NCBI GenBank assembly: GCA_964514305.1
Contig: CAZEQD010000003.1
Coordinates: forward strand, 16,449 to 80,448
Direction: 5' to 3'
Source: an uncultured Eubacteriales bacterium
Lineage (GTDB): Bacteria > Acidobacteriota > Aminicenantia > Aminicenantales > Aminicenantaceae
DNA: 64,000 nucleotides
Shown: one piece after another, positions 47,503-57,281 of the stretch
Layout: every line of letters begins with the position of its first letter
Numbering within the stretch: position 1 is the first letter of the stretch
Translations under genes and position numbers: made by a program
The notes under the pieces: generated by a model
Databases searched by the model: none
The model's input: only the letters and a program-made list of their open reading frames with translations
What the model was told of the DNA's origin: nothing

Positions 47503-48801
47503 TCAGTCTAAGAGGTTTCTTTCCTTAGCTTCTTTTATCAGGTCCGGCCTAAATTTAGGGTGAGCAATACTGATCAGAGCTTTTGTTCTTTCCTGGAGGT
47601 TTTTTCCATGAAGGTAAGCTACCCCATACTCAGTGACTACATACTTAACATCGGCCCGGGTAGTAACCACCCCGGCCCCTTTTTTCAGAAAGGGAACGAT
47701 GCGTGATATTTCACCATTTTTAGCCGTAGAAGGAAGAGCAATAATTGGTTTACCTCCCTTGGATTGAGCTGCGCCCCGAATGAAATCGACCTGTCCCCCA
47801 AACCCGCTGTAAATGTAAGTACCAATAGAGTCCGAACAAACCTGACCAGTTATATCAACCTCAATAGCTGAATTGATGGCTACCATATTATCATTGCGAG
47901 AGACATTGAAAGGATGGTTAGTGTAATCTACAGGATGTCCTTCAAAGATAGGATTATTATCAGCAAATTCATAGAGCCTATCGGAGCCTAAAATAAAAGT
48001 CAAAATTACCTTATAAGGATGAAAGGTTTTTTTGGCTCCAGTAATGGTTCCCTCTTCAATGGCTTCCATGACTCCATCGGAGACCATCTCGGTGTGGATT
48101 CCTAAATCCCGACGACCCTTCAAAGCAGAGAGAACAGCATCCGGTATTCCCCCAATGCCTAACTGCAAGGTTGAGCCATCCTCGATTAAATCAGCAATAA
48201 AGTTTCCTATCTTTCTTTCTACTTCACTAAAAGGTTTTTTCTCAAGCTGAGGTAAAGGTTCAGAAACTTCAACAATTTTATGGACTCTCGACACATGAAT
48301 AAAAGAATCTCCCAGAATACGCGGCATCTTTTCATTTACCTGAGCGATGACAATTTTGGCTGTTTCAGCAGCAGCTTTGGAAGCTAAGACTTCGGCTCCA
48401 AAGCTCATAAACCCATGTTCATCAGGAGGAGATAGATGGACCATGGCTACATCTATGGGCATCTGACCAGAATAGAATAAATTTGGTATTTGATGGAGGA
48501 AAATAGGCACATAGCCAGCTCTTCCTTCATTGATGGCTTTACGGTCAGCCGGGCCGACAAAAAGAGAATTATGGCGGAAATGGCCTTCCATTTCAGGCTT
48601 AGAAAGAGGATCTTCGCCCATTAAAAGAACGTGAACCAGCTCTACCCCTTCCAGTTCATCCTTCCTCGAGGCTAAGGCCTTTAATAATACATAAGGAGTA
48701 GCAGCATTGCCGCTGATATAAACTCGGCTACGGCTTTTAATTTCAGCTACCGCTTCTTCAGCTGAGACCAACTTTTTTTTGTAATCATCAACACATGACA
48801 T
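47503..48801 (-). CDS. Acetyl-CoA hydrolase/transferase (4-hydroxybutyrate CoA-transferase-like)
   Basis: TLQLGIGGIPDAV, LGIHTEM (catalytic Glu), INSAIEVD.TGQV, SGFGGQVDF, ADVKYVVTEYG. Confidence 0.92.
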   Translation of the reverse strand: MSCVDDYKKKLVSAEEAVAEIKSRSRVYISGNAATPYVLLKALASRKDELEGVELVHVLLMGEDPLSKPEMEGHFRHNSLFVGPADRKAINEGRAGYVPIFLHQIPNLFYSGQMPIDVAMVHLSPPDEHGFMSFGAEVLASKAAAETAKIVIAQVNEKMPRILGDSFIHVSRVHKIVEVSEPLPQLEKKPFSEVERKIGNFIADLIEDGSTLQLGIGGIPDAVLSALKGRRDLGIHTEMVSDGVMEAIEEGTITGAKKTFHPYKVILTFILGSDRLYEFADNNPIFEGHPVDYTNHPFNVSRNDNMVAINSAIEVDITGQVCSDSIGTYIYSGFGGQVDFIRGAAQSKGGKPIIALPSTAKNGEISRIVPFLKKGAGVVTTRADVKYVVTEYGVAYLHGKNLQERTKALISIAHPKFRPDLIKEAKERNLLD

Positions 48802-48854
48802 TTTTTTTCACCTACCTTCTAGGCGGTTTTCCTTAAAGACAGCAGCTTCTATTT

Positions 48855-50372
48855 TTATTTTTTACCCTTAGACCGCCCACGGATTTTTAAATATTTATCA
48901 ATTTCAGCAGCAGCTACCCGACCATCTCCCATGGCCAGAATAACTGTGGCTCCACCTCTAACAATATCTCCCCCGGCATAAACGCCTTCCATGCCTGTAG
49001 CCATAGTATTCCAATCAACTTCAACATTTCCCCATTTCCCTACTTTAAGTTGAGGCGTTGTTTGGGGAATCAAAGGATTAGGGCTTTGGCCAATAGCCAC
49101 CACCACCAAATCTACTTCCATGGTGAACTCTGAACCCTCAATAGGAATAGGACGACGCCTGCCGGAAGAATCAGGTTCCCCAAGTTTCATTTTTATACAT
49201 TCCATAGCCTTAACTCGTCCCTGGTCATCGCCAATATACCTGATGGGAGCAGTAAGAAAATGGAATTCAATACCTTCTTCCTCAGCATGCTTTATTTCTT
49301 CAATTCGGGCTGGCATTTCTACCCGCGAGCGGCGGTAGACGATAATGGCCTGTTCTGCCCCTAGCCTTTTCGCAGTTCGTACCGAATCCATAGCCACATT
49401 ACCACCGCCTATAACCGCAGCCCGTCTGGCCAAAAATATAGGTGTATCATATTCAGGAAACTTATAAGCTTTCATCAGATTGACTCTGGTTAAATATTCA
49501 TTGGCTGAGTAGACTCCGATCAGATTCTCTCCAGGAATACGCATAAAATTAGGCAGGCCTGCTCCAGTGCCGATAAAAAAAGCTTCATAACCTTCTTTCT
49601 TTAAATCTTCCAAAGTGGCTGTCTTACCAACGATAAAGTTTGTCCTAAGTTCTACTCCCAGTTTTTTCAAATATTCTACTTCTGATTCCAGGATGGCCTT
49701 CGGCAGCCTGAATTCAGGAATACCATAAACCAAAACGCCACCTGCCACATGAAGAGCTTCAAAAATAGTGATTTTATGTCCTTTTTTTGCCAGCTCTCCA
49801 GCTACAGTCAAGCCGGCTGGACCAGCTCCGATAACGGCCACTTTATGACCAGTTGAAGGAGGGATTTCGGGGATATAGATTTCCCCCTGAGCCCTTTCAT
49901 AATCTGAGACAAATCTTTCTAAATTGCCAATGGCCACCGATACTCCTGTTGCTTTTTTCAAATTACAGACGGCCTCACATTGAGACTCCTGAGGACATAC
50001 CCGGCCGCAAATAGCCGGAAGAGAGTTGGCCTCTTTTATCTTTCTAACACTCTTAATAAAATCACCGATCTCAACTAATTTGACAAATGTTGGAATATCA
50101 ATCCCTACCGGACAACCTTTCACACACGAGGGATTAGCACAATCCAAACAACGGCGGGCTTCTTCTCTAGCAAGTTTTGCCTCCAAACCCAGATTAACCT
50201 CATTAAAATCTTTGTTTCTAACTTCAGGGTCCCGTTCGGGCATTTTCTGGCGAGGAATCTTTATTCTTTCTCTAACAGGAAGAGATTTACGCAGTTCCTT
50301 CCGCCATTCCTGGTTAAAGGCTTGACGTAGCCTTTTTTTGACTTCCGGGGATAATTCTTTATCTTGACTCAT
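48855..50372 (-). CDS. nfnB: NfnB / GltD-like NADPH-dependent flavoprotein (Nfn large subunit)
   Basis: [61 protein letters not shown]. Confidence 0.88.
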
Positions 50373-50395
50373 TTTTTCACTTCATAGCTTAGAGC

Positions 50396-55714: not shown

Positions 55715-56152
55715 TTATTTGTACTCGCTTAGTATAGAATCCACTTTTTTCAAGGTAGTATAGGAATAATATTTACCATCAACTACTACTACCGGACCAA
55801 TAGCACAGCATCCTAAACAGTTAACTGTTTCCAGGGTAAATTTTCGATCGGGGGTTGTTTGGCCAACCTTGATATTTAGTTTGCGAGCAAAATCATCAGC
55901 AATCTTATCTCCGCCTCTAACATGACAAGCAGTGCCCAGACAGACTGTAATTAAATGTTGGCCTCTTGGTTCTAAAGTAAAAGCCTTGTAAAAAGTCAGA
56001 ACTCCAAATATCTCACTTTCTGAAATCTTTAAATAGTCGGATATCCTGGAGATAGCTTCAGCTGGAATATAACCATATTTATGCTGGACCTGATGAAGAA
56101 TATGAATAAGATTTCTCTGTTGGGGCTTAAACTGTCTTAATATTTGCTCCAT
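55715..56152 (-). CDS. nuoE: HydC/NuoE-like [2Fe-2S] subunit
   Basis: TFYKAF, VCLGTACHVRG, VNCLGCCAIGP. Confidence 0.92.
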   Translation of the reverse strand: MEQILRQFKPQQRNLIHILHQVQHKYGYIPAEAISRISDYLKISESEIFGVLTFYKAFTLEPRGQHLITVCLGTACHVRGGDKIADDFARKLNIKVGQTTPDRKFTLETVNCLGCCAIGPVVVVDGKYYSYTTLKKVDSILSEYK

Positions 56153-56168
56153 TTGTTATTCTGAGAAA

Positions 56169-57281
56169 TCAAACTAAAGAAAATTCTTGATATTTTAATC
56201 CAAACCTTTCAGCAAAAGTTTTTCTGACAATATTCCCATGATAAACATACAATCCTCTGACCAAGGTTCTATCACCTTTTAAGGTCTCATCCAACCCCTT
56301 TTCTCCTATCTTCAGCAAATAAGGAGTCACCATATTAGACAAAACTTTGGTTGAAGTCCGGCTTACAGCCGAGGTAATATTGGGAACACAATAATGAATA
56401 ACGCCTTCTTCAACAAAAGTGGGCTGTTCAAGAGTAGTTAAACGACTAGTCTCAATACACCCCCCCTGATCTATGGCCAGATCAATAATTATTGATCCTT
56501 TTTTCATGCTCTTGACCATGTCCTTGGTGATCATGATTGGCGCTCTCTCTCCAGGCCTGAGAACAGCTCCAACTAGAATGTCTGCAATTTTGACCATACG
56601 CGCTAAGTTGTAATTGCTGGCAATAAGAGTTATCAGACGGCCAGAAGTCATCTCCTCCAGCTCTCTCAGCCTTTCCATATCCCGACCTAAAGCAATGGTA
56701 TGAGCTCCAGCCCCAAGCAAGGCCTTAATAGCACTGCGGGCTAAGACCCCACTACCGACAATGATTGCTGTCGCTGGAGGCACAGTTACAACTCCTCCCA
56801 TTATCACCCCTTTTCCACCTTGACTTGTCTGAAGATAATGGCCGGAAATAAAAAGGCACATCTGTCCAGCAATCTCGCTTAAACTCTCAATAAAAGGCAG
56901 GACACCATTATCCCTCTGAATTATTTCATAGCCAATAATGGTTACTTCTTTCCTAAGAAGTTCTTCGATTAAGCTTTTTCGAGCAACAGCCAAATGCTGA
57001 AAGCCAAATAAAATCTGGCCTTTTTTTATCAGGCCACATTCTTCCTTACTAAGAGGAGAAATATTAAGGACAACATCTGAACGACCAAAAACTTCTTCTT
57101 TAGTAAAAACGATTTTAGCTCCAAGAGAAGCATATTCTTCATTAGAATAGCCTGATTTCAGACCTGCTCCAGCTTGAATATAGACAGTATGTCCTTTTTC
57201 AACCAAAAGAGAGACACTGCTTGGAGTTAAACTAACCCGGTTTTCTATTTTTCCACTTTCATTGATAACACCCACACTCAT
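56169..57281 (-). CDS. ald: Divergent alanine dehydrogenase/PntA-fold protein
   Basis: ENRVSLTP, GAG..SG, HLA, DLAIDQGGC.ET and GVIHYCVPN are present, but KVKEP reads NISPL, GGGVVG reads GSGVLA and IDLN reads LGRD. The symbol denotes homology; the function is doubtful. Confidence 0.65.
   Translation of the reverse strand: MSVGVINESGKIENRVSLTPSSVSLLVEKGHTVYIQAGAGLKSGYSNEEYASLGAKIVFTKEEVFGRSDVVLNISPLSKEECGLIKKGQILFGFQHLAVARKSLIEELLRKEVTIIGYEIIQRDNGVLPFIESLSEIAGQMCLFISGHYLQTSQGGKGVIMGGVVTVPPATAIIVGSGVLARSAIKALLGAGAHTIALGRDMERLRELEEMTSGRLITLIASNYNLARMVKIADILVGAVLRPGERAPIMITKDMVKSMKKGSIIIDLAIDQGGCIETSRLTTLEQPTFVEEGVIHYCVPNITSAVSRTSTKVLSNMVTPYLLKIGEKGLDETLKGDRTLVRGLYVYHGNIVRKTFAERFGLKYQEFSLV

Follow-up and report, generated by a model that had tools for sequence, protein, structure and literature searches.

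In this work we have analysed a window of 64,000 nt from an uncultured Eubacteriales bacterium which GTDB places in the Aminicenantaceae (assembly GCA_964514305.1, contig CAZEQD010000003.1, positions 16,449 to 80,448), and within it a string of seven co-directional genes on the reverse strand, from position 57281 to 47503 (Table 1). A gene for an Ald-like dehydrogenase is followed by those for BfuC, BfuB and BfuA, for NfnS and NfnL, and for a CoA-transferase, with intergenic distances of 16, 0, 1, -1, 23 and 53 nt. When the open reading frames (ORFs) and gaps were checked, the string proved to be as the first-pass annotation had described it, except that the overlap in front of NfnS is smaller: close homologues of NfnS are uniformly 277 aa long and its start is Met15 of the listed ORF, so that BfuA and NfnS overlap by a single nucleotide in a TAATG junction. 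Comparison with related genomes suggests that the five redox genes probably encode a Bfu enzyme to which NfnS and NfnL have been added as further subunits, one uncharacterised five-part exchanger of electrons between NADH, ferredoxin and NADPH. The gene arrangement is far beyond chance, as it is kept across phyla and occurs also as a gene fusion.

Table 1. Coordinates of the gene string and its promoter candidate in the window and, in the last line, of unusual BfuB proteins in related loci (locus:positions).
Feature	Length	Position	Strand	Basis
AlaDH/PNT-family dehydrogenase (Ald-like)	370 aa	56169..57281	-	Pfam AlaDh_PNT_N/C
BfuC, NuoE/HydC-like thioredoxin-like [2Fe-2S] protein	145 aa	55715..56152	-	PF01257, 173 bits
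BfuB, long NuoF/HydB type	641 aa	53789..55714	-	Pfam/NCBIfam and motifs
BfuA, FdhA/NuoG-like	852 aa	51229..53787	-	Pfam/NCBIfam
NfnS, NfnA/PyrK-like	277 aa	50396..51229	-	302-303 bits to 5jca_S
NfnL, NfnB/GltD-like	505 aa	48855..50372	-	547 bits to T. maritima NfnB 4ylf_B
CoA-transferase, acetyl-CoA hydrolase/transferase family	432 aa	47503..48801	-	Pfam AcetylCoA_hydro/_C
Sigma-70-like promoter candidate, TTGTCA-17-TAATAT with TG		57310..57338	-	Consensus match only; in the 80-nt gap 5' of the Ald-like gene
BfuB with fused GltD/NfnL-like module	~1050 aa	L041:6847-10002, L066:779-3871, L079:6826-9966, L081:6786-9935, L078:1-2109		

BfuB comprises an N-terminal thioredoxin-like domain, an FMN/NADH site and the B1 cluster, as well as an H...CPxxxC (B2) site; its C-terminal part has two [4Fe-4S] motifs. 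Its DEGDPGAYMDR and GAGAFVSGEETSL stretches and its Cys...His-x6-Cys-x4-Cys site agree with published alignments of the Bfu family. Schut et al. (2022) used DEGDPGA[F/Y]MDR and GAGAFVxGE to tell bifurcating BfuB from non-bifurcating NuoF, and at these NADH/FMN motifs the window protein has ICNADEGDPGAYMDRS and EGAGAFVSGEETSL. The ligands of B2, defined as a Cys before the B1 motif and H-x5-6-C-x4-C after it, are contained in ETCMVD...CGKCVPC...CGLG...AHIKNKACPALVC, and two CxxCxxCxxxCP motifs for the B3 and B4 clusters follow. Over its full length BfuB scored 750-835 bits against the solved bifurcating B subunits (7t2r_B, 9bov_B, 8oh5_B and 9n5u_B, from the A. mobile NiFe enzyme, Caldicellulosiruptor saccharolyticus (Csac) NfnB, Sporomusa ovata StnB and Thermococcus sibiricus NfnB) and about 400 bits against NuoF. 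The thioredoxin-like (B5) domain, which may bind either [2Fe-2S] or Zn, reached 21.5 bits, under the Pfam cut-off of 24.8; in Csac NfnB the corresponding site is occupied by Zn. BfuC, whose gene stands directly upstream of BfuB in related loci too, provides the NuoE-like [2Fe-2S] protein of the Bfu family, and BfuA the family's A1-A4 clusters. The long-form HydBC/NuoEF-type module seen in the first pass is thus borne out by the published Bfu motifs. A departure from this form was observed in some Aminicenantes and Dehalococcoidales loci, where BfuB has, in the place of its C-terminal 2x[4Fe-4S] ferredoxin-like domain, a GltD/NfnL-like module as a fusion (Fer4_20 and Pyr_redox_2; Table 1). Most of these loci, L079 excepted, also have NfnS-NfnL downstream. 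In such complexes the low-potential exit would be occupied by a flavin/NAD(P)H module and not by a ferredoxin site.

The A subunit had been described as catalytically empty and HydA-like. Its emptiness has been confirmed, but it is of the FdhA/NuoG type. The Pfam scan of BfuA found Fer2_4, NADH-G_4Fe-4S_3, Fer4_Nqo3, Molybdop_Fe4S4, Molybdopterin and Molydop_binding, and neither an H-cluster domain, a flavin domain, Pyr_redox nor Fer4_20. The closest solved relatives are FdsA-type formate dehydrogenase subunits (310 bits; R. capsulatus 6tg9 type), and a HydA-like identity is ruled out. The Mo-ligand motif of R. capsulatus FdsA, ARVCHSP, corresponds to VRI-QSP in the window protein. When species-representative genomes were scanned with BfuA, 80 loci were obtained, and at this position they fall into two clearly separate classes. 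Relatives in Dehalococcoidia and Nitrospirota read NNIDHCARL[C/U]HAP, four of them with an in-frame TGA exactly at [C/U], and Desulfobacterota are also among the relatives with a retained HCARL[C/U]HAP active site. All Aminicenantes proteins and that of L070 have neither Cys/Sec nor His at the Mo-ligand position, and the same holds for the Asgard-type relatives; in the Aminicenantes and the Asgard-type proteins alike the pterin domain is degenerate or shortened. For this domain the mean pairwise identities are 40% and 31% among Mo-less proteins vs 70% and 68% in the Cys/Sec class, while the N-terminal Fe-S region gives 64% in the former and 68% in the latter. To judge from these values, the pterin domain of the Mo-less class is under relaxed constraint. 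It is the lost Mo/W ligand together with the diverged pterin domain that confirms the claim of an empty subunit; with such a sequence formate cannot be its substrate, and BfuA is best read as a decayed formate dehydrogenase subunit which persists as an Fe-S wire.

The wire itself appears to be complete. Ligands for A1-A5 are present, together with an extra CxxCx5C motif (C122, C125, C131), and are invariant in 29 homologues of 34-57% identity from an exhaustive representative search. In the extra motif (residues 122-131, window 53424-53395) the His-ligated cluster motif is duplicated in part (HxxxCxxCx5C ... CxxCx5C), which adds three invariant cysteines. It is present in all relatives, those of the Cys/Sec type having a fourth Cys ('DIC'), and it probably binds an additional Fe-S cluster. 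We considered it as the specific docking site for NfnSL and rejected this, as it also occurs in Cys/Sec relatives which have no NfnS/L (L057, L059 and L074). Nor was there support for a cluster shared between the subunits, to which BfuA would contribute its three extra Cys and NfnS a new one: in L061-L063 BfuA has the fourth Cys, yet NfnS is of the GGCYG type described below. In-frame TGA codons at the Mo/W-ligand site ('HCARLUHAP' or 'HCARLUHSS') were seen in L059, L072, L078, L081 (codon ~370) and L085 (~5755), the motifs of L085-L090 being read by direct translation; these genes probably encode selenocysteine formate dehydrogenases which gene callers have split into two ORFs. We also came across a protein of 1365 aa (P0212) in which [2Fe-2S] and GltD-like (Fer4_20/Pyr_redox_2) parts are joined to Molybdopterin (281 bits) and Molydop_binding domains. 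It resembles Stn-A, with an apparently intact pterin domain, and may be an NADPH-linked formate dehydrogenase.

The other half of the set consists of NfnS and NfnL. NfnL is canonical: it has both [4Fe-4S] motifs including CPQE, the FAD site, the NADPH Rossmann fold and the PEFRLP arginine, which in NfnSL contacts the bifurcating flavin (N5). Its alignment with T. maritima NfnB is almost gapless, the Fe-S domain included, and the motif of the FAD-proximal cluster is of the NfnSL type, with a pattern identical to that of T. maritima NfnB; at its N-terminus it is extended by about 35 aa of basic character. NfnS retains its FAD motif (RIPLT, in GERIPLTIADW) and the Asp+3Cys ligands of the [2Fe-2S] cluster (DGTGMCGACR...FACVDGPEF). 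The canonical NAD(H) site, a GGGVG loop and AVGPxxMM, is not found in it. By comparison with P. furiosus NfnI-S and T. maritima NfnA, GGGVG has become GGCYG and AVGPxxMM has become IGCTYLM, and the loss of both NAD-site motifs noticed in the first pass is real. The replacement is not peculiar to the window. The pair GGC[Y/F]G and GCT[Y/F]xM was found across phyla in 62 of the 68 NfnS copies of the fetched loci, and GGCYG in every one of the 120 top homologues of an NfnS from Nitrospirota, mostly with GC[T/N] as the second motif. From this we infer that NfnS no longer binds NAD(H). Since the new motif pair is shared by several phyla and the motifs for FAD and [2Fe-2S] have stayed invariant beside it, the sequences indicate that the site is re-purposed rather than decayed.

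How firmly do these genes belong together? The order BfuC-BfuB-BfuA-NfnS-NfnL recurs in Aminicenantes, in Dehalococcoidia (L060, L063, L067 and L081), in Nitrospirota (L061 and L062) and in L070, and it was also met in Nitrospirota/Thermodesulfovibrionales, Desulfobacterota and unassigned metagenome-assembled genomes (MAGs), where the flanking genes differ. Among the 55 loci with a Mo-less BfuA and enough downstream DNA, NfnS and NfnL follow directly in 51 and NfnL only in four, so that none lacks both; BfuB lies upstream of the Mo-less BfuA in 53 of 53 loci. In the Cys/Sec class NfnS is present in just 8 of 15. Starting from NfnS (L001-L004 and L085-L090), we found a BfuA/FdhA-like gene directly upstream in all ten contexts, and BfuB/C in six of the seven whose contig is long enough, the exception being L085. 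In no examined context does this NfnSL pair stand alone; it always comes after, or is fused to, a BfuA/FdhA-like protein. The altered NfnS is therefore not a protein which mostly occurs away from HydABC-like genes, and the five redox genes form one conserved unit, as had been supposed.

Natural fusions of BfuA with NfnS are the strongest sequence evidence for an association. They make up more than 100 protein clusters at 90% identity, from Loki-/Promethearchaeota, Hel- and Thorarchaeota, Syntrophales, Desulfobulbus, Hydrogenedentes and the cultured Desulfogranum japonicum. In the three contexts examined, BfuC-BfuB lies upstream of the fusion and NfnL downstream. Of 14 fusions checked, 13 have complete Fe-S ligand sets (P0450 is without three of the four A1 ligands) and most keep GGC[Y/F]G and GC[T/N/K]xxM. 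The shortest, of about 830 aa, have kept their ligand sets and lost most of the pterin domain. For the earlier idea that a HydABC-like trimer docks on NfnAB, the fusions are direct support, with NfnS as the point of docking.

Some other features of the related loci were recorded. In Nitrospirota (L061:4370-7345, and L062) the complete gene set of a proton-translocating transhydrogenase (pntAA-pntAB-pntB) lies directly 5' of the five genes, which makes this a neighbourhood of NAD(P) redox-balancing genes, and on a metagenomic contig (L086:1203-3489) an HdrA-like flavoprotein of 594 aa and an MvhD/FlpD-like protein adjoin the five-gene cluster on its 5' side. Many MAG loci titled 'uncultured Eubacteriales bacterium' (e.g. 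L006, L009 and L013) are syntenic with Aminicenantes loci, with BfuA 50-57% and NfnS about 75% identical; these titles look like mislabelled taxonomy.

Among known enzymes the closest parallel is Stn/NfnABC (Nfn-Bfu, Type 1), for which we used Sporomusa ovata StnABC (8oh5), Caldicellulosiruptor saccharolyticus NfnABC (9bov) and Thermococcus sibiricus NfnABC (9n5u) as comparators. In that type the A subunit is Fdh-like and pterin-less and carries an NfnL-like domain as a fusion. The window set shares with it the BfuBC core motifs, a pterin-less Fdh/NuoG-like A subunit and a GltD/NfnL-type FAD module for NADP(H), and the reaction predicted here likewise links NADH, ferredoxin and NADPH. It differs in that NfnL is a separate gene, closer to T. 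maritima NfnB (Table 1) than to the NfnL-like domain of 9bov_A (about 350 bits), in that an NfnS with FAD and [2Fe-2S] is present where Stn/NfnABC has none, and in that BfuA has no flavin domain, the NfnL domain fused to the A subunit being absent. The taxa listed for Nfn-Bfu, Firmicutes and Euryarchaeota, are also different from those of the window set. On analogy the set is most likely a split, NfnS-containing analogue of Stn/NfnABC, so that 'new supercomplex', the name first proposed, is better replaced by 'split variant' of a known type. Stand-alone NfnSL/NfnAB (T. maritima 4ylf and P. furiosus NfnI 5jca) has the same motifs for L-FAD, 2x[4Fe-4S], [2Fe-2S] and S-FAD, but GGGVG/AVGP in place of the GGC[Y/F]G/GCT found here, and the window-type pair, unlike it, is always accompanied by BfuA/FdhA-like proteins. 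P. furiosus NfnII ('Xfn', 5vj7) also has a small subunit which does not use NAD(H), and the literature on it raised the idea of an unknown 'X' in place of NAD(H). In NfnII, however, the site is blocked by an extra loop and an Arg, the motif is GAYTG, and the enzyme stands alone and was shown to be non-bifurcating, whereas the window NfnS has another, widely conserved motif pair and a specific Fe-S protein partner. Fdh-Bfu Type 1/FdsABG (R. capsulatus 6tg9) is the nearest relative of BfuA, and some relatives of the window set keep its Cys/Sec site, in contrast to the Mo-less BfuA without Cys/Sec and His. The NADPH-dependent 'soluble Fe(III) reductase' SfrAB of Geobacter sulfurreducens similarly combines a NuoG/Fdh-like subunit with a GltD-like NADPH flavoprotein. 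It is not known to have a NuoEF/BfuBC core or a PyrK-like NfnS. Kremp et al. listed it as a homologue of parts of Stn.

The classification of Schut et al. (2022) has the types Codh, FdhFeFe, F420, Fdh, FeFe, Mbh, Nfn (Type 1, fused), NiFe, Nuo, Por, Rub and Wor, together with 17 BfuB clades without function in a tree of 57 clades, and no listed type has NfnSL subunits. After comparison with the classification and its supplement, no published type matches the window set; under this scheme the enzyme would be Type 3-like with extra subunits. We found no description of BfuABC combined with NfnSL in the full-text literature searched, which leaves many subscription-journal papers outside it. In recent papers on their structures, NfnSL and NfnABC are presented as alternatives which have no relation to each other, and Kremp et al. 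reported that Stn and Nfn are almost mutually exclusive in acetogens.

Taken together, BfuC, BfuB, BfuA, NfnS and NfnL probably form one complex, because the five proteins are conserved together and sometimes fused, BfuA has no substrate site of its own, so that the BfuBC core would need a partner module, and the NfnS pocket appears re-purposed. That the complex functions as a kind of transhydrogenase is likely, with less confidence. In the model we prefer, BfuBC would be the NAD(H)- and ferredoxin-reactive bifurcating core, with FMN and the B1/C1 clusters as flavobicluster and ferredoxin reacting at the C-terminal clusters of BfuB. BfuA would be only a wire and scaffold, its Mo/W-pterin site having been lost, and NfnL would be the NADP(H) site. 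NfnS would serve as the adaptor, its rebuilt pocket by S-FAD being the point at which it attaches to BfuA and, most likely, exchanges electrons with it. Overall, the complex would couple the reduction of NADP+ to ferredoxin and NADH, or run in reverse. Exchange by way of NfnS is favoured by the new conserved residues of NfnS, by its role as fusion partner and by the unchanged look of the ferredoxin-side domain of NfnL. Even so, we put the passage of electrons through NfnS at somewhat less than an even chance and a connection through the NfnL clusters distinctly lower, and the model as a whole, a soluble five-subunit analogue of Stn/NfnABC with exchange most likely via NfnS, is likewise tentative.

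Several observations weigh against this model. Its support is entirely comparative, and the synteny within Aminicenantes is not independent, since the flanking genes are syntenic too. In L085 (Desulfobacterales, 4564-9989) FdhA(Sec), NfnS(GGCYG) and NfnL occur without BfuBC upstream, so the tightest partnership is that of BfuA with NfnSL and BfuBC may be optional; this locus may encode a three-subunit NADP(H)-linked formate dehydrogenase, perhaps one bifurcating in the NfnSL manner. In two Aminicenantes loci (L069, 9629-16181; L071, 9791-13797) NfnL comes straight after BfuA and there is no NfnS, and in L082 a canonical GGGVG NfnS stands beside a BfuA. (BfuC is missing from L069 as well, and downstream of the CoA-transferase of this locus comes an NfnS-like gene of the canonical GGGVG type.) P. 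furiosus NfnII demonstrates that a NAD-blind NfnS can be redox-silent. The last difficulty is thermodynamic and was calculated from physiological potentials quoted in the literature. If electrons take the NfnS path and both flavin sites bifurcate, the balance comes to NADH + 6 Fdred + 4 NADP+ -> 4 NADPH (Fdred and Fdox, reduced and oxidised ferredoxin), which is downhill by about 65 mV per electron, effectively irreversible and wasteful of the energy of ferredoxin, whereas an Stn-like scheme lies near equilibrium and is balanced. The two bifurcation centres proposed in the first pass are possible in that both motif sets are intact, but such a tandem would run one way, and the scheme with a single bifurcation remains beside it. 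We regard it as unlikely that the L-FAD of NfnL and the FMN-[4Fe-4S]-[2Fe-2S] flavobicluster of BfuBC, mechanistically unrelated bifurcation sites, work in series. If they did, the enzyme would be an over-driven NADPH generator with roughly this stoichiometry, in the Cys/Sec relatives it would be an NfnSL-based bifurcating formate dehydrogenase with CO2/formate as the high-potential couple at low formate, and the long-sought 'X' of Xfn-type enzymes would turn out to be a protein.

Could the same five subunits be wired as in Stn? The [4Fe-4S] pair of NfnL would then dock on BfuA near A3, L-FAD would convert between two-electron and one-electron transfer for NADP(H), the sole bifurcation would take place at BfuBC (NADH + 2 Fdred + 2 NADP+ <-> NAD+ + 2 Fdox + 2 NADPH), and NfnS would take no part in the redox chemistry but act as a structural adaptor, after the precedent of P. 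furiosus NfnII. Csac NfnABC has such a path, FAD-A7-A6-A3-A2-A1-B1, with a pterin-less Fdh-like domain, and NfnII, with its occluded NAD site and silent S-FAD, has a non-bifurcating Fd:NADP activity. The balanced energetics also speak for this wiring, as does the GltD-like domain found on BfuB in some relatives, which indicates that such modules can join Fe-S chains through their own clusters. On the other hand, an NfnS pocket with a new, strongly conserved motif and no decay is hard to reconcile with a silent adaptor, the partner fused to BfuA is NfnS and not NfnL, and the NfnL Fe-S domain aligns near-gaplessly with that of T. maritima NfnB, which uses free ferredoxin, with the bifurcation-type Arg and Glu kept. 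We consider this wiring rather unlikely, but less so than the tandem of two bifurcating sites.

It may also be asked whether there is one complex at all. The string could encode two independent, co-transcribed enzymes, an NfnII-like non-bifurcating ferredoxin:NADP+ oxidoreductase and a BfuABC whose third partner is encoded elsewhere. NfnSL normally acts alone, NfnII is just such a stand-alone oxidoreductase with a NAD-blind small subunit, and tight spacing in this region joins unrelated genes too. This explanation nevertheless has to contend with the BfuA-NfnS fusions, the constant company of NfnL with the Mo-less BfuA and of a BfuA-like gene with the GGCYG NfnS, and a BfuA without a substrate site, which together make it improbable. 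Least probable by far is that the Ald-like protein is the missing third-substrate module, either an amino-acid dehydrogenase or a PntA-dI-like hydride relay, of an amino-acid-linked bifurcating dehydrogenase. Its gene opens the string, with 16 nt between it and BfuC, it is kept in most Aminicenantes loci, and all copies have unusual active-site changes in common; yet it is missing from deeper Aminicenantes and from every other phylum with the five-gene core, and the protein lacks any Fe-S or flavin cofactor through which electrons could reach BfuA.

The comparison of the related loci also suggests an evolutionary route. Cys/Sec relatives (L061-L063, L067, L085, L086 and L090) carry the same NfnS signature, and for this reason the ancestor was probably an Fdh-type BfuA with NfnSL attached. 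The pterin site would then have been lost in Aminicenantes and in the fusion-bearing lineages, leaving a pure pyridine-nucleotide/ferredoxin exchanger; the Fdh-like domain of Stn/NfnABC is empty as well, and a passage from Fdh-Bfu to Stn/NfnABC by this route is plausible. NfnSL and the Bfu family are handled in current reviews and structural work as unrelated and mutually exclusive solutions of the NADH/ferredoxin/NADPH problem; in this operon, its relatives and the fusions the two are combined in nature. The joint set is widely distributed among Aminicenantes, Dehalococcoidia, Nitrospirota, syntrophic Desulfobacterota and Asgard archaea, organisms whose energy metabolism is known almost wholly from annotation, and its genes are now annotated apart as 'NuoEFG', 'formate dehydrogenase' and 'sulfide dehydrogenase/NfnAB'. 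It also supplies a concrete, testable candidate for the partner that takes the place of NAD(H) where NfnS is NAD-blind. Desulfogranum japonicum, which has the fused form (locus L091), is in culture, so that purification is feasible.

The genes at the two ends of the string are another matter. Both the Ald-like gene and that of the CoA-transferase were rejected as core parts because they occur in only a subset of Aminicenantes loci, and by this distribution they are lineage-specific neighbours. The Ald-like protein is 45-50% identical to alanine dehydrogenases (AlaDHs) and scores 352 bits with TIGR00518 (L-alanine dehydrogenase), under the cut-off of 391.85. Equivalents of Arg15, His95 and Asp269 are present. 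All 50 Aminicenantes copies have Ile ('VLNISPL') at the position of the pyruvate-binding Lys74 ('VKVKEPL'); instead of the Asp which specifies NAD ('ILDVN') they have Gly followed by Arg, His or another residue ('LGR' in the window). The residue roles follow the P. lapideum and M. tuberculosis structures. With Lys74 and the NAD-specifying Asp replaced, the sequence suggests the use of NADP(H) and an altered substrate, and one may speculate that the protein draws NADPH from the complex as an electron sink. In L042, L045, L066, L073 and L077, as in the other phyla, the gene is missing. The CoA-transferase scored 358 bits with TIGR03948 against a cut-off of 675. Its gene was found in part of the Aminicenantes loci and is absent from deeper Aminicenantes and other phyla, so that its membership in the unit is doubtful and the tie to amino-acid fermentation which it had been thought to provide is weak.

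The ends of the operon cannot be defined by spacing alone, since the tight co-directional run reaches unrelated genes, downstream an RNase HII-like (47472-46795) and an AlaX-like gene (46802-45615), upstream an Na/Ca exchanger and an amidohydrolase. We found no terminator-like site in the internal gaps of the string, including the 53 nt between NfnL and the CoA-transferase. A promoter candidate precedes the Ald-like gene (Table 1); promoter-like sites are not much enriched over shuffled sequences. Elsewhere in the window there are genes for an aromatic amino-acid (histidine/phenylalanine) ammonia-lyase (4875-6398) and a class I/II aminotransferase (10044-11246), which lie more than 35 kb from the operon yet fit with peptide fermentation.

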